Source: Myxococcota bacterium (GTDB taxonomy: Bacteria; Myxococcota_A; UBA796; CAJQPC01). From it: 64,000 nucleotides of DNA. Each line of letters opens with the position of its first letter. Position 1 is the first letter of the stretch. The stretch spans positions 1-64,000 of the forward strand of contig JAZAMN010000025.1 in assembly GCA_036229005.1 (NCBI GenBank). Reading direction: 5' to 3'. Made by a program: the position numbers and the translations under genes. Of the stretch, positions 1-24,278 are shown piece after piece. The notes under the pieces are model-generated. The model did no database searches. It worked only from the letters and a program-made list of their open reading frames with translations, and was not told the origin of the DNA.

Positions 1-1449
1 CGCCCCCAGCGCGCCGCCCCGCCGCCGCCCCCACCCAGCGCGTCTGCTTCAGCCGGTCCTCGTCGACCCCAGAGGGCTCCGGTTGCGGCGAGCCAGGACC
101 AGCCCAGGTCGGTGAGGAGGAGTGTGTCGGTGGCCCCACAGCCGCCCCCACCTCCTGCACCTGCAGCCCCCACACCACCCCGTCGCACCGCCCCCCCCAG
201 CGAGGACAGGCGATCCGCGGGCCGCTGGTCCAAGCCCACCGGGCGTCGGCGTCAGCGCAGCATGGAGGGGGAGGACCTCTCCTCGCCGACCACCACGGCG
301 GGCTTCCGGCTCTCCGCGCAGGAGCAGGCCGAGGTCTCGCAGCCGGCGGAGCGGCGTCCGCGGCGGGCACCTGGGGATCACCGACCCCGGCGGGCGGAGC
401 GCCCCAGCTTCGAGACCCCTGATATGGCCGCGGTCGAGCAGCGGGAGCCTCAGCGCGCGCACCCGCAGGAGGCCTTGGGTGAGCGCCAGGCGCCGCCCGA
501 GAAGGCCACGCGCAGCGCCTCGGATGTGATCGAGCAGATCCTGCAGGCCAGCTCCTCCGGGGACCGACCGGTGGAGGCCGCGCCGCCCCTGCGCACGCCT
601 GAGCCCGACCCCGCGCCGGCTTCGCTGGAGGAGGCCTTCGGCGTGCCGCGGCACGGCTTCGGGTTCGGAACCGGGCTGGAGGGGCCGCCCACTGGACCGC
701 TGCCGGACGACACCCACGACGCCATCGAGCGCACCCTGGACCCGGCCGCCGGGGTCTCCCACCGCGAGACCACGATGGAGCTGCCGGAGCGGGGGACCTC
801 GGGCGCGGCACACCACCCCCCGAGCCGGGACCGGGGCACCGAGCCCTTGCCGGTGGTGGAGGAGACCCCCGAGCGCACCGAGACCCCACCTCAGCCCCTG
901 CCGCTGACCCTGGGCACGCCGCTGAGGCCCCAGGGGCGCACGCCGGACCTGATCCCGCCCAGCCAGGGGGGAAAGGGGCGGGCCTTCCTGCTCAAGCGCG
1001 GGCTGGACGCCCGGCCCATCAAGACGCGCATCCCGCGGGCCTTCACCCTGGCGGAGGCGGTGAGCTTCCTGGTGGGGAACGTGGTGCCCGTGCGCCTGGA
1101 CCTGCAGGGGCGCCTGCTCTTTGGCTACCGCCTGGGGCCCGAGAGCGGCCCGGCGCCCGGCAGCACGCTGGTCTCGGACTTCGAGGAGGGGAGCGTGCTG
1201 GTGCTGCACCCCGTCCCCGCGGAGGAGGTCTGGGTGCAGGTCGAGGTCCGCTCGGGCACGCCGGCGCGCTTCCGGGTGCCGGTGAACCTGGCCATGAGCG
1301 CCGCGAGCGTGACCGACGCGCTGGCCGGGTGGATGCAGCTCCCCCCGGGACGCTGGGCGCTGCGCCATCAGGAGCGCGTGCTCTCCCCCCACCTGCTCCT
1401 GGCTGAGCTGGACCTGCGCGAGGAGCCGAGCCTGGTGCTTGCGCGATGA
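1..1449 (+). CDS. 5'-truncated Pro-rich low-complexity protein with two C-terminal ubiquitin-like (YukD/EsaB-type beta-grasp) domains
   Basis: Frame is open from base 1 with no stop before 112. C-terminal VWVQVEVRSGTPARFRVPVNLAMSAASVTDALAGWMQLPPGRWALRHQERVLSPHLLLAELDLREEPSLVL fits the YukD/EsaB pattern, and a similar weaker unit precedes it. ATGA overlap with the next gene. Confidence 0.6.
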   Translation, partial: RPQRAAPPPPPPSASASAGPRRPQRAPVAASQDQPRSVRRSVSVAPQPPPPPAPAAPTPPRRTAPPSEDRRSAGRWSKPTGRRRQRSMEGEDLSSPTTTAGFRLSAQEQAEVSQPAERRPRRAPGDHRPRRAERPSFETPDMAAVEQREPQRAHPQEALGERQAPPEKATRSASDVIEQILQASSSGDRPVEAAPPLRTPEPDPAPASLEEAFGVPRHGFGFGTGLEGPPTGPLPDDTHDAIERTLDPAAGVSHRETTMELPERGTSGAAHHPPSRDRGTEPLPVVEETPERTETPPQPLPLTLGTPLRPQGRTPDLIPPSQGGKGRAFLLKRGLDARPIKTRIPRAFTLAEAVSFLVGNVVPVRLDLQGRLLFGYRLGPESGPAPGSTLVSDFEEGSVLVLHPVPAEEVWVQVEVRSGTPARFRVPVNLAMSAASVTDALAGWMQLPPGRWALRHQERVLSPHLLLAELDLREEPSLVLAR

Positions 1450-3086
1450 GCAGTCGGGAACGCTGGGACGTGGTCCTCTACTTCGCGGAGGGCCCGATGA
1501 GCCTCCGCGGGGACATCGTGTGCCGCGGGCCCGTGGTGCGCATGGGGGCCAACCCGGGACCGGGCGGCCTCAAGATCGAGGGCTACCGGGGCCTGGATGA
1601 CCGCCAGGCGGTGATCTCGGCCTATGACGGGGCGACCGTGTCCATCGCGCCGGTGGGCAGCAACCAGGTGCGCGTGAGCCCGCACCCCCACGTGGACTGG
1701 CGGGAGATCCAGCCCATCCGGGGACCCCAGTACCTGACCCCCGAGAGCGCCTTCCACCTGGGGCCGCCAGGGCGTGGCTGCACGGTGTGGTTCGTGGAGG
1801 CCCGCAAGCTGGGCGACTGGGAGCAGGCGCGGGTGCTCTCCGACGCGGCGGATGTGAACCCGGACGTCCAGCCCTCCGAGGTGCGGGAGCTCAAGAGCTC
1901 CAAGTGGCCGGTGTGGTTCGTGCCCTCGCTGGTGGTGATGGCGATGCTGATCTCGGTGGCCCTGGTGGCGCCCTGGTTCGGCCAGCTCATCGCGCCGCCC
2001 AAGCTGCTGGGCCCGGTGGACGAGGGCGTGGAGTACATCCAGGAGCCCCTGGACCTGGCGCTGGGCACCCAGGTCGACCTGGAGCTGTACCAGGGCTTCG
2101 AGCAGCCCTGGGTGGAGTTCGTGGTGATCCCCAACATGGAGGTCTCCGGCGACACCGACCTGCAGGACCCCGAGAACTTCGACCAGCGCCTGCTCAAGTT
2201 CAGCGCGGGCTACGCCAAGCAGATCGCGTCCGGCCAGAGCTTCTGGAAGCGCCTGGACGACATCCGCTACGACTACGCCGAGGTCGTGAAGATGCTGCGG
2301 GACGAGAAGATGCCCGAGGCCTTCGCCGGCGTGCCCTATGTCGAGTCGGTGTATCGACCGGACCCGGTCTCGCCGGTGTGCGCGGCGGGCTGGTGGCAGT
2401 TCATGCCCGAGGTCGGAAACCGCCTGGATCTGCGCATCGAGCAGTGCACCCTGCGGGGCAGCGCCGAGCGCTGGCAGCCCACCGCCATCGTGCCGCCCAA
2501 GGGCATCCTCAAGACCGCCCGCTACATCAACCGCAGCGACGCGAACTGTGGGCTGGGGGGCACCGGGCGGCCTGACCGCAACTGCTGCCTGATCAGCGCC
2601 TGCGAGGTCGACGAGCGCGAGGACCTGGCCAAGTCCACCCGGGCGGCCATCGGGCTCTTCTCCGAGGCCTGGAACGCGCCGCTGGCCCGGGACTCGGGCG
2701 CCGCCGTGCAGATCGCCATCGCGGCCCACAACGCGGGCTGGGACAACGAGGCCATCGACGGCAACCGCAAGCCCCGCAACCTGCGGCCCGCCTACGAGCG
2801 CTGGCTGGATCGGCAGGGCCTGGACCGGGACCCGAGCTTTGTGGGGGAACAGATCCGCTGCGAGGGAAACGACTTCCGCGACAGCGACTCCTGCGGCGCG
2901 GTGCTGCACCAGCACACCCAGCACTACACCTACAAGGCCCTTGCCATCCACTTCCTGGCCGTCTGCTACTACGCCACCAACTACCCGGATGACCCCGTGT
3001 TCGCGGACTGGAAGGGCTTCACCGGTCGGGAGGGCTACTGCCGCCAGATCGACGTGCCCACCCGCGAGAAGGTCCAGAGCTGGTGA
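1446..3086 (+). CDS. Degenerate FHA domain + transmembrane helix + MltD/SLT-type lytic transglycosylase
   Basis: SLT motifs PYVES (catalytic Glu), AAGWWQFMP, VDER and AAHNAG. TM segment VWFVPSLVVMAMLISVALVAPWF. N-terminal FHA-like beta pattern (VVRMG...DDRQAVI...GSNQV...AFHLG). Confidence 0.75.
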   Translation: MSSRERWDVVLYFAEGPMSLRGDIVCRGPVVRMGANPGPGGLKIEGYRGLDDRQAVISAYDGATVSIAPVGSNQVRVSPHPHVDWREIQPIRGPQYLTPESAFHLGPPGRGCTVWFVEARKLGDWEQARVLSDAADVNPDVQPSEVRELKSSKWPVWFVPSLVVMAMLISVALVAPWFGQLIAPPKLLGPVDEGVEYIQEPLDLALGTQVDLELYQGFEQPWVEFVVIPNMEVSGDTDLQDPENFDQRLLKFSAGYAKQIASGQSFWKRLDDIRYDYAEVVKMLRDEKMPEAFAGVPYVESVYRPDPVSPVCAAGWWQFMPEVGNRLDLRIEQCTLRGSAERWQPTAIVPPKGILKTARYINRSDANCGLGGTGRPDRNCCLISACEVDEREDLAKSTRAAIGLFSEAWNAPLARDSGAAVQIAIAAHNAGWDNEAIDGNRKPRNLRPAYERWLDRQGLDRDPSFVGEQIRCEGNDFRDSDSCGAVLHQHTQHYTYKALAIHFLAVCYYATNYPDDPVFADWKGFTGREGYCRQIDVPTREKVQSW

Positions 3087-3826
3087 GGAATCGACTCTGG
3101 GCGGTGCTGGGCTTCTCTCTGGGGCTCATCGGGCTGAACGGCTACCTGCTGCATCAGGAGGAGGAGGTCTACTTCTCCCACATGGCGGCGCAGGACAAGG
3201 AGGCCGAGGTGCTGCTGTCCCGGGCCACCGACCCGCTTGGGGACCGCTACCAGACGGACAAGACCCAGCGCGAGGAGGACTTCAAGGCCTGGGGCCTGGA
3301 CGAGACCCAGGTCGCCATGACCATGAAGACCCTGCGGGGCATCGACGGGCAGCACCAGAAGCGCATCAGCGCGTGGTTCACCAACCCCAGCGAGCCCGAC
3401 GACCTGCGCGAGTACCTCTGCGGCGACGGCGGCAAGAAGCCCCGCTACTGGGGCATGGCCCTGCTGGTGGTGACCGACAGCTCGGGGGAGCGCCGGCGGG
3501 TCCTGGATCCCGGGCGCACCTCGGAGCTCGAGGAGCAGGAGTGGTCCGTGCGCGCGCCCATCGACCGGGTCTACTCCCAGGTGGAGCTGGACCTGGAGCG
3601 CAAGGACGACGCCACCCGGATGGGGGTCGCGGCCATCATGGGCGGCCACGAGAACCTGGTGCTGGAGCGCACCAAGCCCTTCGGCTCGGGGTTGGTCGGC
3701 GGGTGGTCCTGGTCGGGCGCCATGGCCCTCTCCGCGGGGCTGGAGGACCGGGTGCTCACGTACTTTGCGCTCCTGCACCTGGTGCTGGAGGAGGCCTGGA
3801 GCGAGGGCGGCTTCTGCCACCAGTGA
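3083..3826 (+). CDS. Hypothetical protein with N-terminal membrane anchor
   Basis: GTGA overlap with the upstream gene, high GC3, hydrophobic N-terminus RNRLWAVLGFSLGLIGLNGYLL. Confidence 0.7.
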   Translation: MRNRLWAVLGFSLGLIGLNGYLLHQEEEVYFSHMAAQDKEAEVLLSRATDPLGDRYQTDKTQREEDFKAWGLDETQVAMTMKTLRGIDGQHQKRISAWFTNPSEPDDLREYLCGDGGKKPRYWGMALLVVTDSSGERRRVLDPGRTSELEEQEWSVRAPIDRVYSQVELDLERKDDATRMGVAAIMGGHENLVLERTKPFGSGLVGGWSWSGAMALSAGLEDRVLTYFALLHLVLEEAWSEGGFCHQ

Positions 3827-3837
3827 TGGCCGCGGCG

Positions 3838-3843
3838 TATACT
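3838..3843 (+). promoter_or_regulatory. Putative sigma70-type -10 hexamer TATACT upstream of the kinase
   Basis: TANNNT match in the 34-bp gap before ATG 3861; TA-containing hexamers are rare in this GC-rich DNA. Confidence 0.4.
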
Positions 3844-3860
3844 CCCGCGCAGTCTCGGAG

Positions 3861-6080
3861 ATGCACCCCTTGAAGGCCCGCCGCCGCTTCCGCTTCATCA
3901 AGGAGCTGGCCTCTGGAGGCTTCGGCAAGGTCTACCTGGCCGAGGTCACCACGGCCGAAGGCTTCTCGTCGGTGGTCGCCATCAAGGTGCTCCACGGCAA
4001 GTGGTCCGCGCACACCGAGATCGTCAAGCGGGCCCGCGACGAGGCCCGCCTGCTGGGGCGCCTCCGCCACCGCAACATCGTGCGCGTCGAGGACCTCACC
4101 TCCATCCAGGGCCAGGCCGCCATCGTCATGGAGTACCTGGAGGGGGTCGACTTCAAGACCCTGGTCAACCACCTGGTCAAGCGGGGCGACCGGGTCGCTC
4201 TGCGCACGGCCTTCGAGGCGGTCGGGGCGGTCGCAGGCGCGCTGTGGGCCGCCTGGGAGCAGGTCCCGCTGCAGGGCGGCGAGCCCCTGCGCCTGATCCA
4301 CCGCGACGTGAAGCCCTCCAACATCATGTTGACGGTCGAAGGGGACGTGAAGCTCCTGGACTTCGGCACCGCCCGCGGCAACTTCGAGAACCGCGAAGCG
4401 CACACCCAGGCCCTGGCCTTCGGGTCGCAGGCCTACATGCCCCCCGAGCGCATGATGGGCGAGCCGGACACCCCCGCGGGGGACGTCTTCTCCCTGGGCG
4501 TGACCGCCTTCGAGGTCCTGGCGGGCGGGGCCTTCGGCAAGCTCTACCTGCGCGAGGAGCGCTACGAGCAGGCTCTGGACGAGCGCCTGGGCAGCCTGAA
4601 CCTTGGGGAGCTGGATCCCGAGCTCGCCCGCCGGGTCACGGGCACTCTGCGCGCCATGCTGGCCTACGAACCCACCCACCGGCCCAGCGCGCAGCAGGTC
4701 GTGGAGATCATGGAGATCCTGGCCGACGAGTCCCGGGACGCCGGGCCCCGCCGCTTCGCCCGCACCTGGGTCAAGTCCGCCATGGAGGAGCTCAAGCACA
4801 CGCCGGAGGGCCCCACCCTCGAGGGCCAGTCCCTGGCCGAAGACCGCGCGACCGGCAGCTTCAGCCCCAGCAGCGCGCCCGCGCTCGGTGACGCGCCCCC
4901 CACCTCCTTCGCCGAGGAGGCCCCCGATCCGCTGACGCCGATGATCCCGCCGCCCCCGCCGCTTGAGGAGGCCCGCACCTACTACCCGGGTGACGACGAG
5001 CCGCCTCTGGTCGCAGGCGCCGAGCTCCCTGTGGGGCCTCCGCTGGCCGCGCCGCCTCGGGAGGGCCGTCCGTCCGGTCGCCCGGTGACCCTGCCCCCGC
5101 TGGATCAGCTCCCGCGGGACCCGGTGGGGCGGGACCTGGACAAGGTGGAGACGGTCCTGGATCCCGAGGCCGCCCGGCGGGCCTTCGAGCCTCAAGAGCA
5201 GGCCGCGACCCAGCGCCTGGATCCACCGCCCCCGCTGGCCCCCCCGAGCCTGGACGATCCCGACGCCACCCGGCAACGTCCAGGCTGGCGGCCGGCGCCG
5301 CCCACCGCTGCGCTCCCGCCTCCGCCCAACAGCGCGCCCCGCGTGAGCAAGCCGCCCACTGTAGCCCCCGCCGTCTCCCTCCCCAGCGTCCCCAGCGGGG
5401 AGCTTCAGCCGGTGGACGAGGGGCTGCTGGGCCCTACAGAGCGGATGCCCGTCACCCCTCTGGCTGGGGATCCCCCTCCGCCACCCCCGTCGCTCCCTGG
5501 CAAAGACGAGGCCACACTTCCGCGGCAGGAGTTCCAGGCGGCCGAGGCTGCGGAGCCGGCCCGGGCTACCTCGCCGGAGCCGCCCAGTGCTGATCTGCGC
5601 CCGACGCCTTCCGGGTCTGGTGGTGGAGCCGGGCGCATGCTGGCGGTCCTGGCCGCTGCCTTCCTGCTGACCGTGATCGTGGCCGGCGGGCTGGGGTTCT
5701 GGTGGGTGCAGCAGCAGAAGCAGGCGCCGGTGCAGACGCCGCCGACCACGGATGTCGCGGGGACCGAGACCCCCACCACGCCCGACCCGCCGCCCGAAGT
5801 GGACCTGAGCGCGGCGCCCGCCAAGGGCACGGGGCACCTCAAGCTGGAGCTGCCTGCCAGCGGCGCGGGGACCTTGACCCTCTCCGGTATGGGTTACAAG
5901 CAGGAGGTCCCGGGGCAGGCGCTGGTCGCGCTGGCCGACGTGCCCAAGGGAACGCTGCGCACCAAGCTGCGTGGCGGCGACAACTCGCACCGCGGCACCT
6001 TGGACGTGGAAGAGGGCAAGACCTGCACGTGGAAGCTCCCCGATCTGGACAGCGAGTGGCAGCGGGTGGGCTGCGACTGA
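3861..6080 (+). CDS. Hanks-type membrane Ser/Thr protein kinase with Pro-rich linker, TM helix and small PEGA-like exported domain
   Basis: LASGGFGKV, VAIK, HRDVKPSN, DFG, YMPPE and DVFSLG motifs all intact; TM LAVLAAAFLLTVIVAGGLGFWW. Confidence 0.93.
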   Translation: MHPLKARRRFRFIKELASGGFGKVYLAEVTTAEGFSSVVAIKVLHGKWSAHTEIVKRARDEARLLGRLRHRNIVRVEDLTSIQGQAAIVMEYLEGVDFKTLVNHLVKRGDRVALRTAFEAVGAVAGALWAAWEQVPLQGGEPLRLIHRDVKPSNIMLTVEGDVKLLDFGTARGNFENREAHTQALAFGSQAYMPPERMMGEPDTPAGDVFSLGVTAFEVLAGGAFGKLYLREERYEQALDERLGSLNLGELDPELARRVTGTLRAMLAYEPTHRPSAQQVVEIMEILADESRDAGPRRFARTWVKSAMEELKHTPEGPTLEGQSLAEDRATGSFSPSSAPALGDAPPTSFAEEAPDPLTPMIPPPPPLEEARTYYPGDDEPPLVAGAELPVGPPLAAPPREGRPSGRPVTLPPLDQLPRDPVGRDLDKVETVLDPEAARRAFEPQEQAATQRLDPPPPLAPPSLDDPDATRQRPGWRPAPPTAALPPPPNSAPRVSKPPTVAPAVSLPSVPSGELQPVDEGLLGPTERMPVTPLAGDPPPPPPSLPGKDEATLPRQEFQAAEAAEPARATSPEPPSADLRPTPSGSGGGAGRMLAVLAAAFLLTVIVAGGLGFWWVQQQKQAPVQTPPTTDVAGTETPTTPDPPPEVDLSAAPAKGTGHLKLELPASGAGTLTLSGMGYKQEVPGQALVALADVPKGTLRTKLRGGDNSHRGTLDVEEGKTCTWKLPDLDSEWQRVGCD

Positions 6081-6973
6081 CCCTGCTCCTGCTGCTCCCG
6101 GCTCCGGCCTGGGCAGGGGACTTCGAGGCCGAGCTTGGCCTGGCGCGCGCGGCGGTCCTGGAGGGGGACGCCAAGGCCGCGGACAAGCACGTGGACGCCG
6201 CGCGGGACGCGGTGGAGAGCACCCAGACGGTGATCCTGGCGGATCAGGCGGCCAGTCCCAGCTTCTACCGGGGCGTGTTGGCCTTCCAGGCGGGGGACAG
6301 CGACGCGGCGATGGACCACTGGCGCCGCACCCTGACCATCGCGCCGCGCTTTGTGGTGGACGTGGAGCTGCTCCCGCAGGAGGACGGACAGGACCTCTTC
6401 GAGGCGCTGCGCTCCGAGATGCAGCAGGCCCCCATGTCGCCCCCGGGGGTGGACGACGAGGCGGTGGGCGTGCGCGTCTACGTCTCCGGGCAGCTCATGC
6501 ACAGCTACGATCTGGTCTACCAGGGCGAGCAGCTCGTGCAGGTCCTGTGCCCCGACGATGCCCTGCATAGCTGGTGGCACGTCTATGGCGACGCGCCCGA
6601 CTACGCGGCGGCCTGCGCGCTCCCGCGGCAGAGCCTGAGCGTCCGGGGGCAGGACCCCGCGGACACACCGGCCCTGAGCGCGGATCGCGACGGGAGCCTG
6701 CTGCCCTACGCGCTGCTGGGAGGCGGCGCGCTGCTCGTGGCGGGAGGGGCGACCGCGCAGCTCGCCCTGGCGCGCCCGGCCTATGCCCAGGTGGAGGCCG
6801 CCCGGGCCGCGCCGGACACGGTGAGCCGGGAGCAGGCAGACCAGCTCAGTGCGGACTTCAACCGGGCCCGCTGGGCCGCTCTGGGGCTCTACGCCGCTGG
6901 CGGTGTGGTGATCGGCAGCACGCTGGTGGTCGGCGTGGATGGCCAGGGCGTCGTGCTCCAGGGGAGCTTCTGA
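6056..6973 (+). CDS. Exported TPR-like protein with C-terminal hydrophobic hairpin
   Basis: Signal-like LRLTLLLLLPAPAWA; TPR-like FYRGVLAFQAGDSDAAMDHWRRTLTIAP; two Gly-rich hydrophobic C-terminal segments. GTG start is uncertain. Confidence 0.6.
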   Translation: MAAGGLRLTLLLLLPAPAWAGDFEAELGLARAAVLEGDAKAADKHVDAARDAVESTQTVILADQAASPSFYRGVLAFQAGDSDAAMDHWRRTLTIAPRFVVDVELLPQEDGQDLFEALRSEMQQAPMSPPGVDDEAVGVRVYVSGQLMHSYDLVYQGEQLVQVLCPDDALHSWWHVYGDAPDYAAACALPRQSLSVRGQDPADTPALSADRDGSLLPYALLGGGALLVAGGATAQLALARPAYAQVEAARAAPDTVSREQADQLSADFNRARWAALGLYAAGGVVIGSTLVVGVDGQGVVLQGSF

Positions 6974-8193
6974 TGGGCGAGCAGCAGGTCCCCGAGGCGC
7001 TCCGGGCCGTGGTCCAGTCCGCGCTGGAGCGGCAGGAGGTCGCCGACTGGGAGGGCGCCGCGCGCGCCTGGCGTTCGCTGCAGGAGGGCGCCGCCGAGCG
7101 GGGCCACGAGGCGCTGGAGCTGGACGCCTGGGTGCGCCTGGCGGACGTGCTCCGGCGCGCCGACCGGCCCCGGGAGGCCCTGGACGCGCTGGAGCAGGCG
7201 CTGGCCCGGCACCCGGATGAGATCCAGACCCAGCTCCTGCGCATCCAGACCGCCGCGCTGCTGCTGGACACCGGCTCGCTGGAGCAGGCCGAGGCCCGCG
7301 CGCGGAGCTGCGTCGCGGCGTCCCAGGGCCCTCTGCAGGCCATGGCGCTGGACTCGCTGGCCGCCGCGCTGGCCACCCGCGGGGACCGCCTGGCGCTGGC
7401 CGAGGTCGTGCGGGAGCTTGAGTCCATCGGGCAGGGGCCCGCTGCGCTGGCCGGGCGCTTCCGCCGGGCGCGCCTGGACCGCCTGGAGGGCCACCTGGCC
7501 GAGGCCGAGCAGGGGCTGGCCAGCATCGCGGACGCCCTGGACGGGGTGGAGGGGGCCGCCGGTGCTTCGGGCGCCGCGCTCACCCAGCTCGCCCAGCTCG
7601 CGCTGCTGCGCGGCGCCTTCGCCGACACCGAGCTGCTGCTGGCCGCCGCCGAGAAGGCCTGGACCCAGGCCGGGCGGGACGTCGGCAACATGGAGGTCCT
7701 GGCCCTGCGCGCCGAGCTGGCCGTGGAGCGGGGGGCGCTGACCTTCCTGCCGGGCTGGCTGGACACCGCCGTCCGCTACGCAGAGGAGCGGGGCCTGGTG
7801 CTGCTGGAGGCCCGCCTGCGCCGGGTGCGCGGCCTCTGTCGCCTTCGAGCGGGCTCCAAGGCCGGGCACGCCGATCTGGACGCCTCGCTGCTGCTGGCCT
7901 CCCAGGCGGGCGCCCCATTCCTGGCCGGCCGCACCCGCCTGGAGCGCGCCCGTGAGGGCCTGGGACCGGGCGGCCGCGAGGCCAGCATCGGCGAGCTGGA
8001 GCGGGCGCTGGACGAGCTCACGGGCGACCGCATCTGGGCCGCCCGCGCGCGCATCTCCCTGGCCCAGGCCCTGAACGAGGCGGGCGAGCGGGGGCAGGCC
8101 ATCGAGCACGCCACCGCCGCGCTGGCCGCCTTCACCGCGGCGGGCCTGGACCGCGACGAGGCCACCGCCCGCGCCTTCCTCGAGGCGCGGTAG
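6973..8193 (+). CDS. Cytoplasmic TPR/helical-repeat protein
   Basis: TGATG overlap with the upstream gene; repeated A/L/E-rich TPR-like units such as LADVLRRADRPREALDALEQAL and LAQALNEAGERGQAIEHATAAL. Confidence 0.7.
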   Translation: MGEQQVPEALRAVVQSALERQEVADWEGAARAWRSLQEGAAERGHEALELDAWVRLADVLRRADRPREALDALEQALARHPDEIQTQLLRIQTAALLLDTGSLEQAEARARSCVAASQGPLQAMALDSLAAALATRGDRLALAEVVRELESIGQGPAALAGRFRRARLDRLEGHLAEAEQGLASIADALDGVEGAAGASGAALTQLAQLALLRGAFADTELLLAAAEKAWTQAGRDVGNMEVLALRAELAVERGALTFLPGWLDTAVRYAEERGLVLLEARLRRVRGLCRLRAGSKAGHADLDASLLLASQAGAPFLAGRTRLERAREGLGPGGREASIGELERALDELTGDRIWAARARISLAQALNEAGERGQAIEHATAALAAFTAAGLDRDEATARAFLEAR

Positions 8194-8208
8194 CCCCAAG
8201 CACCCGGC

Positions 8209-9621
8209 CTACTGGTCCGGCAGCTTCTCGGAGGCCGCGAACACCAGCGCGCTGTACCGGTTCAGGGCGCCGCGCTCCACCAGGGTGCCCCAGTCGCGGG
8301 TGCCCTCGGCGGCGATGGCCTGCTGGACGTGCTCGCTGCCCTGGTTGTAGCCGGCCAGCGCCAGCCCCCAGTCCCCGAACTCGCCGTAGAGGTCTGAGAG
8401 CAGCGCCGCGGCCGCCTGGGTCTCGAGCTGCGGCTCCAGGCGCTCGTCCACCTGGGAGTCCACCCGCAGGCCGTAGCTGCGCGCCGTGGTCGGGATGAAC
8501 ATCCACAGCCCCTTGCCGGGGACCCCGGGCGCAGCCGAGTTGCCCTGCACGCCCGCGCCCAGGTTCTCGTACCCGGACTCGATCAGGGGGACCGCCGCCA
8601 GCTCCGGGGGCAGCCCCCAGGCCTCCAGCTCCGCGTGCACCATCGGCGCCCACTGGGGGTAGCGCTCCAGCCCTCGGGCCACGAAGTCGGCCAGGTCGCC
8701 CTCCATCCGGGCCCGCGCCGCGTCGGTCACCGCGTGCTCCGGCACCTGGAAGGCCGCCCGCTCCTGCACCTGGGGCAGGCGGGCCTGCCCCGCGTAGGCC
8801 ACCCCCAGCGTGCCCATAGAGCACAGCAGGCCCAGGGCCAGCAGGGGGAGGCGGGATCCAGCGTTCTTGTTCTTCTTCAGCATCAGCAGTCGTCGCTCCA
8901 GCAAGGTGGGGGTGTGCAGGCCGACCGCCACCAGCGGGCGCGCTCCGCGAGCCGCCTCCAGCAGGGCCCGGCCATAGGGGATCGGGGCCGTGTTCCGCGC
9001 CAGCAGGGCGGCGTCTACCGCAAGCTCCTCCAGATCGCGCAGGCCACGGGTCAGCAGGTGTACCGCCGGGTTCGGGAAGCACAGGGCCTTGAGCCCCAGC
9101 AGCGCCCAGGCCCAGATGGGGTCGCCCTGCCGCAGGTGTTGGAGCTCATGCCGCAGCGCCAGCCTCGAGTCTCCGCCGCCCAGCGCGACCACGGGCATCC
9201 CCGGGAGCCACGCCGACCACGCCGCCCGGTCCTGGACCACCCAGACGCCCCGGATCCGCCTGCCCGGCAGCCCATCCACACGGCGCTTGAGACCCAGCCC
9301 CGCCAAGGCCACGGCGCCCACGACCCCCAGTCCCAGCGGCCACACCGGGAGGCGGGGGAGGGAGGGGACCCGGCGTACTGCGGCTTGTGGGCCCACCACC
9401 GGGCCTGTGGACTGCGCCCTGGTCACCTCGCTGGGGGAGGGTGCAGGCGAGGACAGGCTGGGGGGCTCCCAGCTCCAGGCGGTGGGGGCGATGAGCGCGA
9501 GCACCAAGAGCCCTCGTCCCACAGTCAGCGCCAGGCGCGGCCGGGCGCTCCGAGCCAGGAGCTGGACGCCGATGGCCGCCGGAACCAGGCAGATCTGCAG
9601 CAGCAGCCACGCGCGCAGCAT
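8209..9621 (-). CDS. BlaR1-like M56 metallopeptidase fused to an MltD/SLT lytic transglycosylase
   Basis: M56 motifs LRHELQHLRQGD, FPNP, EELAVD, YGRALL, LERRL; SLT motifs PLIESGY, GLWMFIPTTARSYGL, DER, FGDWGLALAGYNQG. Start ATG 9621 overlaps the BlaI-family stop (TGATG). Confidence 0.88.
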   Translation of the reverse strand: MLRAWLLLQICLVPAAIGVQLLARSARPRLALTVGRGLLVLALIAPTAWSWEPPSLSSPAPSPSEVTRAQSTGPVVGPQAAVRRVPSLPRLPVWPLGLGVVGAVALAGLGLKRRVDGLPGRRIRGVWVVQDRAAWSAWLPGMPVVALGGGDSRLALRHELQHLRQGDPIWAWALLGLKALCFPNPAVHLLTRGLRDLEELAVDAALLARNTAPIPYGRALLEAARGARPLVAVGLHTPTLLERRLLMLKKNKNAGSRLPLLALGLLCSMGTLGVAYAGQARLPQVQERAAFQVPEHAVTDAARARMEGDLADFVARGLERYPQWAPMVHAELEAWGLPPELAAVPLIESGYENLGAGVQGNSAAPGVPGKGLWMFIPTTARSYGLRVDSQVDERLEPQLETQAAAALLSDLYGEFGDWGLALAGYNQGSEHVQQAIAAEGTRDWGTLVERGALNRYSALVFAASEKLPDQ

Positions 9622-9986
9622 CAGGACTCCCCGTCGTCTTCGAGCAGCGCGCTCAGGCGCTCCAGCTCGTCCGGGGGGAGCTCGCCGTCGTCGACGAGCT
9701 GTCGGACCAGGGCGCTCGCGGAGCCCTCGAAGAGGCTGCCCACCAGGTGCTTGAGCTGGCGGCTGCGGTAGCTGCGGCGGTCGATGCTGGGGTGGTAGCG
9801 GTGGCTGCGGCCCTCTGCCGTGGTGTGGGCGAAGCCCTTGTCCACCAGGATGCGCAGGATGGTGGAGACCGTGGTGTGCGCGCGGTCGTCGCCCAGAGCC
9901 TCGCGGGCCTCGCGGGCGGTGCTGGGGCCGTGGCTCCACAGCAGCTTCATGAGCTCGAGCTCGGTGGGGGTGAGCAGCTTGGACAT
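9621..9986 (-). CDS. BlaI/MecI/CopY family transcriptional repressor
   Basis: LTPTELELMKLLW, AHTTVSTILRILVDKG, GRSHRY and LFEGSASALVRQLV; directly upstream of the M56 gene. Confidence 0.93.
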   Translation of the reverse strand: MSKLLTPTELELMKLLWSHGPSTAREAREALGDDRAHTTVSTILRILVDKGFAHTTAEGRSHRYHPSIDRRSYRSRQLKHLVGSLFEGSASALVRQLVDDGELPPDELERLSALLEDDGES

Positions 9987-10011
9987 CGCGTCTCCGAGGG
10001 GGTGTACGGAG

Positions 10012-10055
10012 ATTAACGAAAGTCTTCGTTGATAACAACTAAGATCTTCGTTGAT
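10012..10055. promoter_or_regulatory. Two tandem palindromic operators, probable BlaI-family binding sites
   Basis: AACGAA-AGTC-TTCGTT (10015-10030) and AACTAA-GATC-TTCGTT (10037-10052), centres 22 bp apart, in an AT-rich patch just upstream of the repressor start. Confidence 0.7.
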
Positions 10056-10062
10056 TGCGCCC

Positions 10063-10093
10063 AAAAGAAAAGGCCGACGCGTCTGCGCCGGCC
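10063..10093 (-). terminator. Intrinsic terminator after the desaturase gene
   Basis: Minus strand reads GGCCGGCGC-AGAC-GCGTCGGCC followed by TTTTCTTTT. Confidence 0.8.
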
Positions 10094-10116
10094 CTCACTC
10101 AGTCAAAAGCGCAGCT

Positions 10117-11085
10117 TCAAGCGGCGGTGCTCTTGGCGAACAGGTGCCGCAGCTCGTCCGGGGGCAGGGGCTTCTCGCCGGCCATCTGCTTCCAGAACTC
10201 CCCGTGGAAGTAGTAGGGGTGCAGCTCCTGGGGCACGATCTCCTTGATCTTCTCGTGGTACGCGGGCAGCAGGTACCAGGGCACGTTCGCGTTGGCGTGG
10301 TGCTCGAAGTGGTAGTTGATCTTGAAGGGGCTGGTGAAGAACTGCAGCGGGTACAGGTAGGTGCGCGAGCGCAGGATGGGGAAGGGCTCGAACTTGAGCC
10401 CGCCGCCGTGCTCCTGGGCCTTCTTGGTGTAGTTCAGGGTCGAGGTGAAGCAGTACCCGATGTACAGCGCGCCCACGCCCCAGAAGCCGGCCATCAGGAA
10501 GGCCAGCAGGGCCAGGGGACCCAGGAAGAGCGCGCCCTTGGCCAGGCGAGCGGCGCCGCCCTCGTACTTCCCGGAGGGGTTCTGGCTCATGAAGTAGAAG
10601 GGGATCAGCCAGATCTTGGCGAACTTGGTGTAGAGCTCGCGGCCGGTGATGGGGTCGCGATCCTGGGGGTCCACGTCCTCGCAGGGGCGGGTGTGGTGGA
10701 TGGCGTGGCCCTCCTCCCAGTGCTTGATGTACTCGGTGAACACCATGGCGGAGGCGAACTTGCCGATGCGGCGGTTGAGCTCGCCCTGCTTGTCCCGGTC
10801 CTCGTCCAGCAGGTACATGTTGTGGCTGCACTCGTGGATGATCAGCACGAAGTGGCCCAGGATGACGCAGCCGATGTAGAGGCCGGCGAGCACCATCCAG
10901 ACGGGCATCAGCACGGGCGCGAAGGCCCGCAGCAGGGTGCCGATTCCCAGAACGACGGGCACGGAGCCCCAGAGAGCGGCGGTCCAGAGCAGGTTGCGGC
11001 GGTTGTGTTCTTGGACGTCCTGCTTGCGCCAGTGAAACTCGTTTCCGGCCGAGGCCGCCTTCCGCATCCAGGTGGCTTTCTTCAT
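10117..11085 (-). CDS. Membrane fatty acid desaturase family protein
   Basis: Three His boxes HECSH, HAIHH, HFEHH plus TM segments and VPWYLLP. Confidence 0.88.
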   Translation of the reverse strand: MKKATWMRKAASAGNEFHWRKQDVQEHNRRNLLWTAALWGSVPVVLGIGTLLRAFAPVLMPVWMVLAGLYIGCVILGHFVLIIHECSHNMYLLDEDRDKQGELNRRIGKFASAMVFTEYIKHWEEGHAIHHTRPCEDVDPQDRDPITGRELYTKFAKIWLIPFYFMSQNPSGKYEGGAARLAKGALFLGPLALLAFLMAGFWGVGALYIGYCFTSTLNYTKKAQEHGGGLKFEPFPILRSRTYLYPLQFFTSPFKINYHFEHHANANVPWYLLPAYHEKIKEIVPQELHPYYFHGEFWKQMAGEKPLPPDELRHLFAKSTAA

Positions 11086-11240
11086 GCTTCTCTCGTGGGC
11101 GCAGCTTCGGAAGCTACGTCGTCGTTACTTCTGGTCCTTCTATTGTGCGTTCGGATAAGGCGCCATCGCCAGCGCAACCCGCGGAAGCTGCGCAACCGCA
11201 GGGAATCGGACACATCTTGGCCCCTGGAGCCCCCCAGCCC

Positions 11241-12305
11241 ATGCAGATCGCCGCAGTCGGCCACGCCTTCCCTGACAACTACTACGACCAGGACGCGCTC
11301 ATCGCGAAGCTGATGGAGGTCTGGGGGCAGCGGCACCACAACCTCTCTCGGCTGGAGCGGATCCACCGCAATGTGCTGGTGGGCGGTCGACACCTGGCGC
11401 TGCCTCTGGACGCCTACGAGGACCTGCGGGGCTTCGGCGACGCGAACGACGCCTGGATCTCCGTCGCCGTCGAGCTCGGCGAGCGGGCCATCCGGCGCGC
11501 CCTGGAGGCAAGCGGGGTCCCCGCGGAGAAGGTGGGGGCCATCATCTTCACCTCGGTCACGGGCATCGCCACGCCCAGCATCGAGGCGCGCATCATGAAC
11601 CGCATCCCGGAGCTGCCCCGGCACCTCAAGCGCATCCCCATGTTCGGGCTGGGCTGCGTGGCGGGGGCGGCCGGGGTCGCCCGGGCGGCGGATTACGTCA
11701 AGGCCTGGCCGGATCAGGTCGCCCTGCTGCTGTCCGTGGAGCTCTGCTCGCTGACCATCCAGCGGCAGGACCTGAGCATCCCCAACCTGATCTCCTCGGG
11801 CTTGTTCGGGGATGGCGCCGCGTGCGCGGTGGTCTGTGGGGAGCAGGTGAGCCCCGGGAACTCCGAGGGCCCCCGCGTCCTCGGCACCCGCTCGGTCTTC
11901 TACTCCGACACCGAGCGCGTGATGGGCTGGGACATCGGCTCGGAGGGCTTCAAGATCGTGCTCTCCGCGGACGTGCCCCAGATGGTCACCGACAACCTGC
12001 GCGGGGACGTGGACGCCTTCCTGGAGGCCCACGGGCTCAGCCTGGACGACATCGGCTCCTTTGTGTGCCACCCCGGCGGGCCCAAGGTGCTGCTGGCCTT
12101 CGAGTCCGCCTTGGAGCGCCCCCGCGAGGCCTTTCAGCTCACCTGGGACAGCCTGCAGCAGGTGGGCAACCTGTCCAGCTCGTCGGTGCTGCTGGTGCTG
12201 CAGGAGACCATGAAGCCCGAGCACCGGCCCCCCGCCGGCAGCCTGGGCCTGATGCTCGCGATGGGCCCGGCCTTCTGCTCCGAGCTGGTGCTGCTGCAGT
12301 GGTGA
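11241..12305 (+). CDS. Type III polyketide synthase (FtpA/SrsA/BpsA-like)
   Basis: Cys-His-Asn triad motifs FGLGCVAG, CHPGGPKVL, GNLSS; VELCS; LFGDGA; MGPAF. Confidence 0.93.
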   Translation: MQIAAVGHAFPDNYYDQDALIAKLMEVWGQRHHNLSRLERIHRNVLVGGRHLALPLDAYEDLRGFGDANDAWISVAVELGERAIRRALEASGVPAEKVGAIIFTSVTGIATPSIEARIMNRIPELPRHLKRIPMFGLGCVAGAAGVARAADYVKAWPDQVALLLSVELCSLTIQRQDLSIPNLISSGLFGDGAACAVVCGEQVSPGNSEGPRVLGTRSVFYSDTERVMGWDIGSEGFKIVLSADVPQMVTDNLRGDVDAFLEAHGLSLDDIGSFVCHPGGPKVLLAFESALERPREAFQLTWDSLQQVGNLSSSSVLLVLQETMKPEHRPPAGSLGLMLAMGPAFCSELVLLQW

Positions 12306-12895
12306 TCTCCCCCAGCCAGTGGGCCTTCCTGGCGGTCTTCGCGCTGGTCGCCATCGAGCGCATCGTGGAGCTGTTCGTCTCCAAGCGCAACGCCCAGGCG
12401 GCCTTTGACCGCGGCGGCAAGGAGTACGGCCAGGGCCACTTTGGCGTGATGAAGGCGCTGCACACCAGCTTCCTGTTCGCGGCGCCCGCCGAGGTCCTCG
12501 TCTTCGACCGGCCCTTCATCCCGTGGTTGTTCGGGGCCTGTCTGGTCGGCGTGGTGGGGACGATGGTGCTGCGCTACTGGGCCATCACCTCCCTGGACGG
12601 CCGCTGGAACACCCGCGTCATCGTCGTCCCCGGCGCGCCCGCGGTCACCGGCGGCCCCTACCGCTTCCTGCGACACCCCAACTACGTGGCCGTCGTGCTG
12701 GAGCTGGCCCTGCTGCCCCTGATGCACGGCGCCTGGCTCACCGCGGCGATCTGGGGCGTGGCCAACCTGATCCTGCTCCGGGTCCGCATCCGCTGCGAAG
12801 AGCAGGCCCTGGCCGACGCCTGCGAATACGAGGCCCGAATGGGGGACCGCAGCCGCTTCGTCCCCGGGCTGCCCCCCTCCAAGGAAGAGACATGA
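12302..12895 (+). CDS. Isoprenylcysteine carboxyl methyltransferase family (FtpB/SrsB/BpsB-like O-methyltransferase)
   Basis: ELFVSKRN, EYGQGH, WNTRVIV, GPYRFLRHPNY, RIRCEEQAL; GTGA overlap with the PKS gene. Confidence 0.9.
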   Translation: MISPSQWAFLAVFALVAIERIVELFVSKRNAQAAFDRGGKEYGQGHFGVMKALHTSFLFAAPAEVLVFDRPFIPWLFGACLVGVVGTMVLRYWAITSLDGRWNTRVIVVPGAPAVTGGPYRFLRHPNYVAVVLELALLPLMHGAWLTAAIWGVANLILLRVRIRCEEQALADACEYEARMGDRSRFVPGLPPSKEET

Positions 12896-13155
12896 GCGCA
12901 CCCAGCGACGAGACCCTGCTGGCCGGCATCGCCGCCGTCGCGGCCGAGCACCTGGACCACCACGACCCCATCACGCCCCAGACCTCGCTGGTCAGCGCGA
13001 TGTCCCTGGACTCGATCCGCATGCTCACGCTGGTCGTGGAGCTGGAGAACCACTTCAAGGTCATGCTCGAAGAGGGCGACGAGCAGGGCATCGAGACGGT
13101 CGGTGACCTGATGGGGGTGTTGCGCGCGCGCATGCAGGAGCAGGCGGGTGCCTGA
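12892..13155 (+). CDS. Acyl carrier protein
   Basis: Acidic 87-aa protein with LDSIRMLTLVVELENHF (phosphopantetheine Ser) and IETVGDL; ATGA overlap. Confidence 0.9.
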   Translation: MSAPSDETLLAGIAAVAAEHLDHHDPITPQTSLVSAMSLDSIRMLTLVVELENHFKVMLEEGDEQGIETVGDLMGVLRARMQEQAGA

Positions 13156-14884
13156 GTACCAGACCCTCAACCAGGCGCTGGACGACCTGGGCCCTCAGCA
13201 GGACGCCACCCTGCGCTTTTTGGACCGGCGCGAGCGGGCCACCGAGATCCCCTGGTCCCAGATGCGCGAGCAGGCCCTGCAGGTCGCCGGACAGCTCATG
13301 GCGCTGGGGGTCGAGCACGGCGAGCGCGTCATCCTGGTGTTCGCGACCGAGCCCGACTTCTTCCGCGCCTTCTTCGGCTGCACCCTGGCCGGCGCCGTCC
13401 CGTGCCCGGTCTACCCGCCGGTGCGCCTGGGCCGGATGGAGCACTACCACGCCAAGACCGCCCGCATGGTCGCGCTCTCCGGGGCCCGCCTGATCCTGGC
13501 CGGGGACAAGGTGAAGAAGGTGCTGGGTGGTGTGGTCGAGCGCGCGCGGCCCACCCTGGGTTGCCTGCAGCTCTCCGAGCTCCCCAAGGCGGCTCCCGAC
13601 CGCCGCGAGGTCACCCCGGACGATCTCGCCATGCTCCAGTTCTCCAGCGGGACCACCGTGGACCCCAAGCCCGTGGCGCTCACCCACGGGGCCGTGAGCG
13701 CGCAGACCAACGCGCTGCTCCACCACCTGCTCCAGGACGCCAAAGATGTGCCCCAGGCCGGCGTGAGCTGGCTGCCGCTCTACCACGACATGGGCCTGAT
13801 CGGCTGCGTGTTCCCCAGCCTCTTCCACCCCGGCGACCTGACCCTGATGGGCCCCGAGGTGTTCATCGCCCGGCCGGCCATGTGGTTGCGGGCGCTGTCC
13901 AAGTACGGGGGCGTGATCTCGCCGGCCCCCAACTTTGCCTACGGGCTCTGCCTGGACCGCATCAAGGACGAGCAGCTCGAGGGCGTGGACCTCTCCGGCT
14001 GGCGCGTGGCGCTCAATGGCGCCGAGCCGGTGGCCCCCCAGGTGCTCCGGGACTTCCAGGACAGATTCGCCAAGTGGGGCTTTCAACCTGAGTCTCTCTC
14101 GCCTGTGTATGGGCTGAGCGAGGCGAGCCTGGCGGTGACCTTCTCGGATCTGGGCACACCCTTTCGGGCCACGCGCTTTGACCCCCACGCCCTGGCAGAG
14201 GGCCGCGCAGTCGAGGACAGTGAGGGCCAGGAGATCGTGTCCGTCGGCACGCCCATCCGCGGCTTCCAGGTGCAGATCCGCGACGCCGACCACCAGCACC
14301 TGCCCGACGGGCGCCTGGGCACGGTCTGGTGCACCGGCCCCAGCCTGCTGCGGGAGTACCTGGGCAACCCCGAGGCCACCGCCCGCGCCCTGGTCGACGG
14401 CTGGCTGGACACCGGGGATCAGGGCTTCATCCACGACGGCGAGCTCTACCTGAGCGGCCGCATCAAGGACCTGCTCATCCTCAACGGGCGCAACCACGCG
14501 CCGCACCCGGTGGAGCAGGCCGTGGATGGGCTGCCGGGGGTGCGCACGGGCTGCGCGGCGGCGGTGTCCTACCGGGACGAGAGCGCGGCGAGTGAGCAGC
14601 TCGTGCTCTTTGTGGAGCACGGCAGTGAGGCCTCGCCGGCGCAGATCAGTGGCATGGCGGAGGCCTGCGCAGAGGCCGTGTTGGTGGGGACGGGGCTGGT
14701 GTGCGCCCAGGTCCTCGTCCTCCCCCCGGGGACCCTGCCGCGCACCAGTTCGGGCAAGATCCGGCGCAGCGAGGCCCTGCGGCAGCACCTGGCCGGAGAG
14801 CTGGTTCCCCCCGACAAGGTGCATCTGCTGCGGGTCGCGGGGATCCTGGCGCGCAGCGCGCTGGGCTTCTGGAGAGCGCGGTGA
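13148..14884 (+). CDS. Fatty acyl-AMP ligase (FAAL)
   Basis: LQFSSGTT, SWLPLYHDMGLIG, PNFAY, NGAEP, YGLSEA, TGDQG, GRIKD, LPRTSSGKIRR. Confidence 0.92.
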   Translation: MPEYQTLNQALDDLGPQQDATLRFLDRRERATEIPWSQMREQALQVAGQLMALGVEHGERVILVFATEPDFFRAFFGCTLAGAVPCPVYPPVRLGRMEHYHAKTARMVALSGARLILAGDKVKKVLGGVVERARPTLGCLQLSELPKAAPDRREVTPDDLAMLQFSSGTTVDPKPVALTHGAVSAQTNALLHHLLQDAKDVPQAGVSWLPLYHDMGLIGCVFPSLFHPGDLTLMGPEVFIARPAMWLRALSKYGGVISPAPNFAYGLCLDRIKDEQLEGVDLSGWRVALNGAEPVAPQVLRDFQDRFAKWGFQPESLSPVYGLSEASLAVTFSDLGTPFRATRFDPHALAEGRAVEDSEGQEIVSVGTPIRGFQVQIRDADHQHLPDGRLGTVWCTGPSLLREYLGNPEATARALVDGWLDTGDQGFIHDGELYLSGRIKDLLILNGRNHAPHPVEQAVDGLPGVRTGCAAAVSYRDESAASEQLVLFVEHGSEASPAQISGMAEACAEAVLVGTGLVCAQVLVLPPGTLPRTSSGKIRRSEALRQHLAGELVPPDKVHLLRVAGILARSALGFWRAR

Positions 14885-15945: not shown

Positions 15946-15954
15946 GCGCGGGTT

Positions 15955-21767: not shown

Positions 21768-21776
21768 GGGGGCTCC

Positions 21777-22604: not shown

Positions 22605-22689
22605 CTGTCGGCTCGCTTGGATCGTTGGGGGAAACTTTCATTTGAGTTGCCGGGGCGTCCATCCGTAGCGCCGTCTGACGGAGGGGCGA

Positions 22690-24276: not shown

Positions 24277-24278
24277 CC

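Follow-up and report, generated by a model that had tools for sequence, protein, structure and literature searches.

The window analysed here, a 64,000-nucleotide (nt) stretch from the genome of a Myxococcota bacterium, starts at the first base of contig C25 of its source assembly and opens with three open reading frames (ORFs) on the same strand, O1, O2 and O3, which occupy window 1-3826. O2 joins a domain of the FHA fold, predicted to face the cytoplasm, to a lytic transglycosylase predicted to lie in the periplasm. O1, which is cut by the contig end, encodes a putative pseudokinase that finishes in two ubiquitin-like (Ubl) units, and O3 encodes a small protein with a membrane anchor. The original prediction described the three genes as joined by ATGA/GTGA overlaps, and both junctions are readable in the window sequence, O1 running into O2 at 1446-1449 (...GCGCG-ATGA-GCAG) and O2 into O3 at 3083-3086 (...GCTG-GTGA-GGAA). 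The 4-nt overlap between O1 and O2 recurs in 12 of 15 related loci. Across window 1-10,000 the G+C content is 68-79% in 500-base windows. The three genes and their parts are laid out as follows, lengths being given in amino acids (aa) and model confidence as the predicted local distance difference test (pLDDT).

1..1449, + strand: O1, the C-terminal 482 codons of a protein of ~857 aa, its ORF open at the 5' end
1..975, + strand: linker of O1, Pro/Arg/Ala-rich and presumably disordered
976..1218, + strand: Ubl unit 1 of O1, model residues 14-94, pLDDT block means 86-96
1225..1443, + strand: Ubl unit 2 of O1, model residues 97-169, the protein ending ...SLVLAR
1446..3086, + strand: O2, 546 aa, with an FHA-fold domain, a single transmembrane (TM) helix and an MltD-like lytic transglycosylase
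1446..1820, + strand: FHA-fold domain of O2, residues 1-125, predicted cytoplasmic, the best-conserved part of the operon
1911..1967, + strand: TM helix of O2, residues 156-174, mean Kyte-Doolittle hydropathy 2.48 over 19 residues
2073..3083, + strand: lytic transglycosylase domain of O2, predicted periplasmic, with catalytic Glu300-Ser301 at 2343-2348
3083..3826, + strand: O3, 247 aa, an N-terminal membrane anchor followed by a predicted periplasmic domain

Judged by its sequence, the C-terminal part of O2 is a family 1, MltD-like lytic transglycosylase that has retained its catalytic motifs. The Pfam SLT model (PF01464), whose cut-off is 21.3 bits, gives O2 24.9 bits and an orthologue 27.7, and an O2 profile searched against the PDB finds MltD (8rhe, E 2.9e-7) and Slt70 (E 5e-5), aligning the ES and GxWQxMP motifs with both. 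At the level of structure, the VIA-align comparison of O2 residues 224-541 gives MltD 8rhe at Z 11.6 over 180 residues and MltF 5aa1 at Z 9.4, parts of the domain being modelled at pLDDT <50. Family 1 lytic transglycosylases carry their catalytic Glu in a Glu-Ser pair, together with G-x-W/M-Q and N-x-G motifs; residues E300, S301, G315, W317, Q318, H428, N429 and G431 are invariant in 16 O2 sequences. The domain also carries a Cys-rich insertion, and the Pfam scan of O2 shows no LysM match. Six Cys residues are invariant and two more occur in at least 90% of sequences, all of them C-terminal to the helix. Because O2 lacks a signal peptide, has charges flanking its helix and confines its eight conserved Cys to the C-terminal part, its topology is most readily read as N-in/C-out, which would place the FHA fold in the cytoplasm and the enzyme in the periplasm.

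The N-terminal domain of O2 is recognized by its fold. In the model, residues 1-122 form a beta-sandwich with pLDDT block means of 56-84. A Foldseek search with this domain returns FHA domains in all matches listed (ranks up to 50) with target TM-scores up to 0.79, the sole match passing E<=0.001 being ArnA (5a8i, E 5e-5). VIA-align places it on the FHA chain of 6i2q at Z 11.7, with a root-mean-square deviation (rmsd) of 2.3 over 95 residues; for O2 as a whole, 46 chains score between Z 11.7 and 8, and 47 of 50 rows fall on residues 1-135, nearly all of them titled FHA. The FHA fold is marked by an eleven-stranded beta-sandwich, and the match to it spans residues 5-122 of O2. The prediction that the second gene is a fusion of FHA and lytic transglycosylase is thereby borne out, the former by structure search and the latter by Pfam, profile and structure. 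Searched by sequence against Pfam and the PDB, the FHA-like domain finds no meaningful match, and an hhalign comparison with nine canonical FHA domains of its own genome is not significant (probability 0.9%, E 0.064). Within the domain, 44 of 127 columns are invariant, and the most conserved positions crowd the loops that bind ligand in canonical FHA domains, as assigned from the DSSP string. The invariant R32, R48, R53 and R76 could form an alternative basic pocket. Since the best 120 of 361 proteins matching the domain are 526-572 aa long and carry SLT or no Pfam family (apart from one partial sequence), the domain appears to be known only in the FHA-transglycosylase architecture.

The original prediction also suspected that the operon continues upstream of the window, and the missing part of O1 has indeed been located. 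The share of O1 within the window comprises the linker and both Ubl units. In relatives, the ORF ending at the O2 start is 700-1000 aa long and opens with a conserved domain of ~330 aa; in the genome under study the matching domain lies at the start of another contig, C40, on the minus strand at ~71-1195, running off the contig. A single public contig of 24,663 nt (run X1) spans both pieces of O1 in the same frame: window 1-4000 corresponds to its positions 9792-13791 with 27 differences, and C40 97-2995 to its positions 13818-16716 with 39 differences. These coordinates imply that C40 1-70 overlaps window 70-1, consistent with a weak end match between the contigs, and the C40 frame of O1 corresponds to window frame +1. 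Because the public contig bridges the two pieces in frame, O1 is taken to be one gene of ~857 codons starting from the ATG at C40 1195; in related loci the ORF is unbroken in 41 of 46. The overlap of ~70 nt between window 1-70 and the end of C40 lies inside a poly-Pro (poly-C/G) repeat of O1, and when C40 1-96 is set beside window 1-70 the contig ends differ over the last ~35 nt of C40. Among 78 related contigs, 29 end within 1.3 kb upstream of O2 and three within 1.3 kb downstream of it. The O1 linker is thus a systematic assembly breakpoint, so that annotations will often split the pseudokinase-Ubl protein in two. Two genes upstream of O1 on C40 were considered as operon members and rejected, being divergent and matched in four and one of 78 loci.

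The N-terminal domain of O1 is probably related to Hanks-type kinases. It matches the PDB kinases PknB, RIPK2 and Aurora at E ~3e-4, its ESM look-alikes are all Pkinase clusters, and Pfam Pkinase (PF00069) scores it at 24.6-26.8 bits, under the cut-off of 31.7. Aligned to PknB, the domain shows HGG in place of HRD, Arg in place of the catalytic-loop Asn and GY(A/L) in place of DFG, and TAVVFH stands where VAIK is expected, with no beta3 Lys. These changes are kept across the 11 sequences that cover the domain. As the beta3 Lys, the HRD Asp, the catalytic-loop Asn and the DFG Asp are all lost, the domain reads as a pseudokinase, that is, a Hanks-type kinase domain whose sequence marks it as catalytically dead. 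Just after it, 34 of 41 O1 sequences carry a Thr-x-x-hydrophobic motif (G-K/A-T-x-x-L/I/M/V/F), whose conserved Thr is, by analogy, a candidate phospho-docking site.

Between pseudokinase and Ubl units runs a long linker. The presumably disordered region described from the window alone is present, and its composition proves to be Pro/Arg/Ala-rich (P 19%, R 13%, A 12%, S 8%, T 7%) instead of Pro/Thr/Ser-rich. A hydropathy scan finds no hydrophobic helix in the window part of O1. A motif, [RK]W..P..RR, is conserved in the linker of 33 of the 41 continuous O1 orthologues, its version in the window being RWSKPTGRRRQR. Closer relatives also share SADD(L/I)I..I and SASDVI(E/D)xIL stretches in the otherwise variable linker (window 808-870 region), which may be short docking motifs.

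The two units at the end of O1 adopt a ubiquitin fold in prediction. From the last 170 residues of O1 and an alignment of 16 orthologues, AlphaFold2 builds two beta-beta-alpha-beta-beta units (pLDDT 90.3, predicted template modelling score (pTM) 0.83), and the boundaries lie within a few bases of the two ~75-aa beta-grasp units originally placed at ~979-1215 and 1225-1446. Foldseek retrieves 135 PDB chains at E<=0.001, led by linear di-ubiquitin, ISG15 and the tandem Ubl of OASL over ~160 aligned columns. In VIA-align, whose list mostly probes unit 2, this unit matches the C-domain of ISG15 at Z 10.8 (rmsd 2.1 over 73 residues), the other rows being ubiquitin-like or related beta-grasp domains, including the EccD3 Ubl (6lar_B, Z 9.5). 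As expected from the earlier reading, no Gly-Gly (GG) is found at the C-terminus, and the ends vary among orthologues (LVLAR, LVLTR, LVLRT and others). What did not fully carry over is the YukD/EsaB-like character of the pattern. The ubiquitin fold and the lack of GG agree with it, but similarity to YukD in sequence stays sub-threshold, with 3 of 16 orthologues matching the YukD model (PF08817) at 20.6, 16.1 and 16.1 bits against a cut-off of 27. The structure search suggested at the time likewise returned the beta-grasp/Ubl fold, but as generic ubiquitin folds instead of YukD specifically. The ubiquitin model matches 3 of 16 orthologues at E 0.03, and neither Pfam model matches the O1 of the window itself. 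Searched as a profile against 1.84 billion representative proteins, the pair yields 244 matches; in 150 of 150 among those listed it lies at or near the C-terminus, full-length forms measuring ~630-1216 aa, and the many short matches are most simply contig-cut fragments like the O1 of the window. A recent tandem duplication of the units was considered and rejected, as they share no sequence similarity: BLASTP of unit 1 against unit 2 yields no alignment at E<=100.

O3 is anchored by one N-terminal hydrophobic helix (residues 5-23), behind which ~220 aa form a domain that is predicted to be periplasmic and contains two invariant Cys. It matches no Pfam or NCBIfam family and has no usable ESM Atlas match (Atlas model pLDDT 0.37); 20 homologues likewise match no Pfam family and are unnamed or labelled 'hypothetical protein'. 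Three further genes follow on the same strand.

3885..6080, + strand: receptor-type Ser/Thr kinase, 731 aa, with a Hanks kinase domain, a Pro-rich linker, a TM helix at residues 585-603 and a small outer domain
6056..6973, + strand: g6, 305 aa, with a signal-peptide-like N-terminus and a weak TPR-like signal (Pfam TPR_2, E 0.011)
6985..8193, + strand: TPR-repeat protein, 402 aa (Pfam TPR_14, 28.4 bits, cut-off 23.5, E 1.9e-6)

The kinase is recognized by Pfam Pkinase at E 6.5e-34, and VAIK, HRD and DFG are intact in its translation. Together with the pseudokinase at the head of O1, this conserved and apparently active Ser/Thr kinase is what the original prediction lacked, and these two parts change the picture most. 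On the TPR-repeat protein, TPR_12 scores 27.7 bits, under its cut-off of 30.1; no hydrophobic segment was noticed in its translation, the hydropathy scan having ended before this gene. Beyond it, on the opposite strand (window 8209-10038, -), a 609-aa protein fuses a BlaR1-type M56 peptidase (Pfam E 1e-16) to SLT (E 3e-17). This second transglycosylase, with its sensor-like membrane domain, adjoins the operon; its membership was considered and rejected, as 15 related loci do not keep the gene at this place.

The operon is restricted to one order of uncultured Myxococcota and is kept there almost throughout. O2 is found in 37 of 41 related genomes, of which 36 are real, one match being merely to the generic SLT core. 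In a phylum sample, the FHA-like domain occurs in 37 of 43 genomes of the same order, mostly as one copy, and in 0 of 257 elsewhere. The neighbourhood was followed by tblastn at 78 loci in species-representative genomes, all of them metagenome-assembled and mostly labelled Myxococcota or 'proteobacteria'; the set includes the 15 loci studied first, and relatives in it are not independent samples. O3 lies downstream of O2 in 76 of 78 loci, and the Ubl part of O1 upstream in 68 of 76. Where enough flank is available, the O1 pseudokinase is found upstream in 44 of 45 loci and the receptor kinase adjoins O3 in 63 of 66. The TPR-repeat protein is present in 31 of the 45 loci with 8 kb of downstream flank, and the conserved block ends at its gene; g6, for which no flank criterion was applied, has a tblastn match in 40 of 78. 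Five genomes of the same order lack O2, and in none of these is the Ubl part of O1 or O3 found. A pseudokinase of O1 grade occurs in one of them (G010), a fragmented assembly in which the operon is probably broken, whereas in the other four, which are 90-97% complete, the Ubl part, O3 and a pseudokinase at the O1 level are all not found. The tight coupling and co-conservation that the earlier reading supposed for the three genes therefore stand, both in their joint presence and in their joint absence from four of the five genomes without O2. Mean pairwise identity is 70% for the FHA domain, 66% for the pseudokinase, 59% for the SLT core, 40% for O3 and 38-40% for the Ubl units. One genome (G023) carries, besides a full-length O2, a second copy matching in two pieces on another contig (contigs C60 and C132), which may be a duplication or a broken copy.

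Taken together, these features point to a scaffold that acts from the inside out, probably under kinase control, on a wall-cutting enzyme in the periplasm. O2 would have its wall-cutting domain outside and its protein-binding domain inside the inner membrane. O1, whose stop codon overlaps the O2 start and which would share its message, would be its inside partner, docked on the FHA fold; the adjoining receptor Ser/Thr kinase would serve as the input to the switch, controlling where or when peptidoglycan is cut, and O3 would be a membrane-anchored, periplasmic partner or regulator of the enzyme. The chance that this picture is right seems to us about even. The docking of O1 on O2 is proposed by analogy with two solved systems, the type VIIb secretion core and the mycobacterial PknB, MviN and FhaA, both compared below. 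To judge from conservation, which is highest in the FHA and pseudokinase domains, these two would make the central contact and the Ubl pair would serve as an additional clasp; the pseudokinase has at least as good a claim as the Ubl pair to being the FHA partner. The conserved Thr of O1, if phosphorylated, might provide the docking site. Alternatively, as the O2 domain lacks the usual Arg and Ser of FHA domains, a phosphate-independent contact is conceivable.

Several observations weigh against this scheme. Confidence in the O2 model as a whole is middling (pLDDT 67, pTM 0.58); the Pfam FHA model (PF00498) matches neither O2 at E<=1 nor four orthologue N-domains at E<=10, and a six-frame FHA scan of the genome gives 25 matches, none of them at O2. 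FHA domains bind phosphothreonine through Gly-Arg, Ser-x-x-His and Asn residues. In a weak hhalign register, Gly-Arg corresponds to G34-A35 in O2 and Ser-x-x-His to D51-D52-R53-Q54, with His in 3 of 16 sequences; as these motifs are not kept, classical phosphothreonine binding is doubtful. The conserved Thr of O1 may simply cap the helix that follows it. The Ubl units (~39% identity) evolve far faster than the FHA domain (70%), and, being so poorly conserved, do not suggest a Ubl-FHA interface as extensive as that of YukD and YukB. In 3 of 66 loci the kinase lies away from O3. Transcription is hinted at weakly, by a 265-nt contig from a metatranscriptome library (run X8) that matches window 876-1140 in the Ubl-coding part with three differences, and DNA carry-over is possible. 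The cellular role is a guess: the presence of the operon as a single copy in nearly every genome of the order suggests that it serves a housekeeping function such as growth or division.

A different account would have O1 and O2 share an operon without touching, the FHA fold binding another partner (such as a component of the divisome or elongasome, or the neighbouring kinase in its juxtamembrane region) and O1 acting as a separate scaffold in the kinase pathway. FHA domains commonly bind kinases encoded with them, the kinase adjoins the operon as often as stated above, and the poor conservation of the Ubl units relative to the FHA domain would fit; against this stand the overlap of O1 stop and O2 start in 12 of 15 loci, the joint presence or absence of the two genes, the rank of pseudokinase and FHA (66% and 70%) as the two best-conserved parts, and the persistence of O1, O2 and O3 in the 3 of 66 loci where the kinase is non-adjacent. 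We consider this account unlikely, though not negligible. Somewhat less probable again is that the three proteins are what survives, or what can be seen, of a larger envelope-spanning machine for secretion, piliation or killing, in which the transglycosylase opens the wall as VirB1-like enzymes do. Secretion systems do include dedicated transglycosylases and FHA-fold inner-membrane ring proteins (YscD, Z 8.8), and the combination of FHA, Ubl and pseudokinase is otherwise known from type VIIb secretion as outlined in the preprint cited below. A family scan of 23 ORFs up to 38.6 kb (a crude gene call gave 44 ORFs) shows, however, no ATPase, secretin, pilin, WXG100 or FtsK-like family, and none of the FtsK/SpoIIIE-type or EssC/EccC ATPases or other type VII secretion genes; nor does it show Tad/Kil, type VI, type III or other secretion genes. 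The conserved block moreover stops at the TPR gene, the C40 genes upstream recur in so few loci (4 and 1 of 78), and the operon is single-copy in nearly every genome of the order, unlike an accessory machine.

The notion that the Ubl pair is a modifier that can be conjugated or cleaved off, in the manner of bacterial ubiquitination-like systems, has the ubiquitin-like fold in its favour, along with a bacterial E1-E2-Ubl complex among the structure matches (8tyz_B, Z 9.5). It is very improbable: the C-terminus is variable and has no Gly-Gly, the pair sits at or near the end of large proteins throughout the 150 matches listed, and no E1, E2 or JAB family is found in the ORFs scanned. A known anti-phage system was also considered and rejected, as PADLOC matches O1 and the kinase through generic kinase domains alone and leaves O2, O3, g6 and the TPR protein without a match.

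Other genes stand out further along the window. A fatty-acid desaturase (-), a type III polyketide synthase and an AMP-binding enzyme stand side by side at window 10117-14884 and may form a small lipid or phenolic-lipid cluster. At 20769-26906 (-) an 875-aa methylmalonyl-CoA mutase with a fused B12-binding domain has a MeaB GTPase gene nearby, the two being separated by two ORFs, one for an alpha/beta-hydrolase and one matching no Pfam family, and at 30686-34177 (+) a 1163-aa protein carries RTX calcium-binding repeats (Pfam E 4e-41).

The restraint of bacterial wall-cutting enzymes is an open problem, and most known controls of lytic transglycosylases act in the periplasm. The operon is a compact candidate for control from the cytoplasm, offering an enzyme with its own, predicted cytoplasmic, protein-binding domain, translationally coupled to a pseudokinase/Ubl scaffold and placed beside a receptor kinase. 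Every part is of a size that permits heterologous expression, even though metagenome-assembled genomes are the sole source for the hosts here. The constituent domains are known; both fusions, their operon and its order-wide conservation appear undescribed. Neither an FHA-transglycosylase nor a pseudokinase-Ubl fusion in Myxococcota was found described in open-access papers and preprints, and in databases these proteins are named only 'hypothetical' or 'SLT domain-containing'; looking up the exact sequences of two orthologues likewise yields no name.

Among characterised proteins, MltD (8rhe, a chain titled LysM peptidoglycan-binding domain protein) is the best profile and structure match of the periplasmic domain of O2, with the catalytic Glu-Ser kept. 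MltD is an outer-membrane lipoprotein, whereas O2 has an inner-membrane helix, a predicted cytoplasmic domain and a Cys-rich insertion. In overall plan O2 resembles YscD (4a0e) of type III secretion, whose phosphate-independent FHA fold in the cytoplasm is likewise followed by one TM helix and a periplasmic domain; in YscD the periplasmic part is a ring-building domain, in O2 an enzyme.

With respect to control, a parallel is offered by MltG, described in Enterococcus faecalis as a direct substrate of the PASTA kinase IreK that is phosphorylated in its cytoplasmic segment (PMC12369325). As that report outlines it, MltG resembles O2 as a single-pass enzyme that cleaves glycan strands outside and is under Hanks-kinase control through a cytoplasmic segment; it differs in its YceG-type catalytic domain and short cytoplasmic segment, with no FHA fold, pseudokinase or Ubl partner. 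A further parallel is the mycobacterial system in which PknB is reported to phosphorylate the tail of the MviN pseudokinase, thereby recruiting FhaA and restraining wall synthesis (PMC12599244). Here too, in that account, an active Hanks kinase, a pseudokinase and an FHA protein act on a cell-wall enzyme, and the phospho-Thr of MviN lies in the tail after the pseudokinase domain, at the place where O1 has its conserved Thr-x-x-hydrophobic motif; PDB entry 3oun is among the fold matches of the O2 FHA domain. The arrangement is reversed, in that the mycobacterial membrane enzyme itself carries the pseudokinase and the FHA protein is the soluble partner. In place of a transglycosylase, the enzyme there is a lipid II flippase; MviN has no Ubl domains, and the O2 domain lacks the canonical phosphate-binding Arg and Ser, as far as the weak register allows them to be placed.

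The analogy with type VII secretion drawn at the outset has turned out to be apt. In the structure of YukB, YukC and YukD outlined in a preprint, the FHA domains of YukB form a clasp around the Ubl protein YukD, which in turn helps YukC, a pseudokinase, to bind (bioRxiv 10.1101/2025.01.24.634720). The operon resembles this YukB(EssC)-YukC(EssB)-YukD(EsaB) core of Bacillus subtilis, as the preprint presents it, in its FHA domain at the N-terminus of a membrane-spanning protein, its pseudokinase and its GG-less, non-conjugated Ubl, three folds that would come together at the cytoplasmic face of a membrane protein. It departs from the type VIIb core in having a periplasmic lytic transglycosylase as its output, one FHA domain instead of two and a diderm host, and its pseudokinase, which has two Ubl units on the same chain, is soluble and akin to ordinary Hanks kinases, unlike the membrane-anchored YukC. 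It is tempting, if doubtful, to suppose that the same triad, previously known solely from the Gram-positive type VIIb core, was rebuilt in diderm Myxococcota around a transglycosylase as a kinase-wired, order-wide, single-copy, inside-out switch that licenses wall cutting in growth or division. The operon also brings FHA, ubiquitin-like and pseudokinase folds together outside type VII secretion, which bears on the origin of the type VII secretion core and on the purpose of non-conjugated ubiquitin folds in bacteria.

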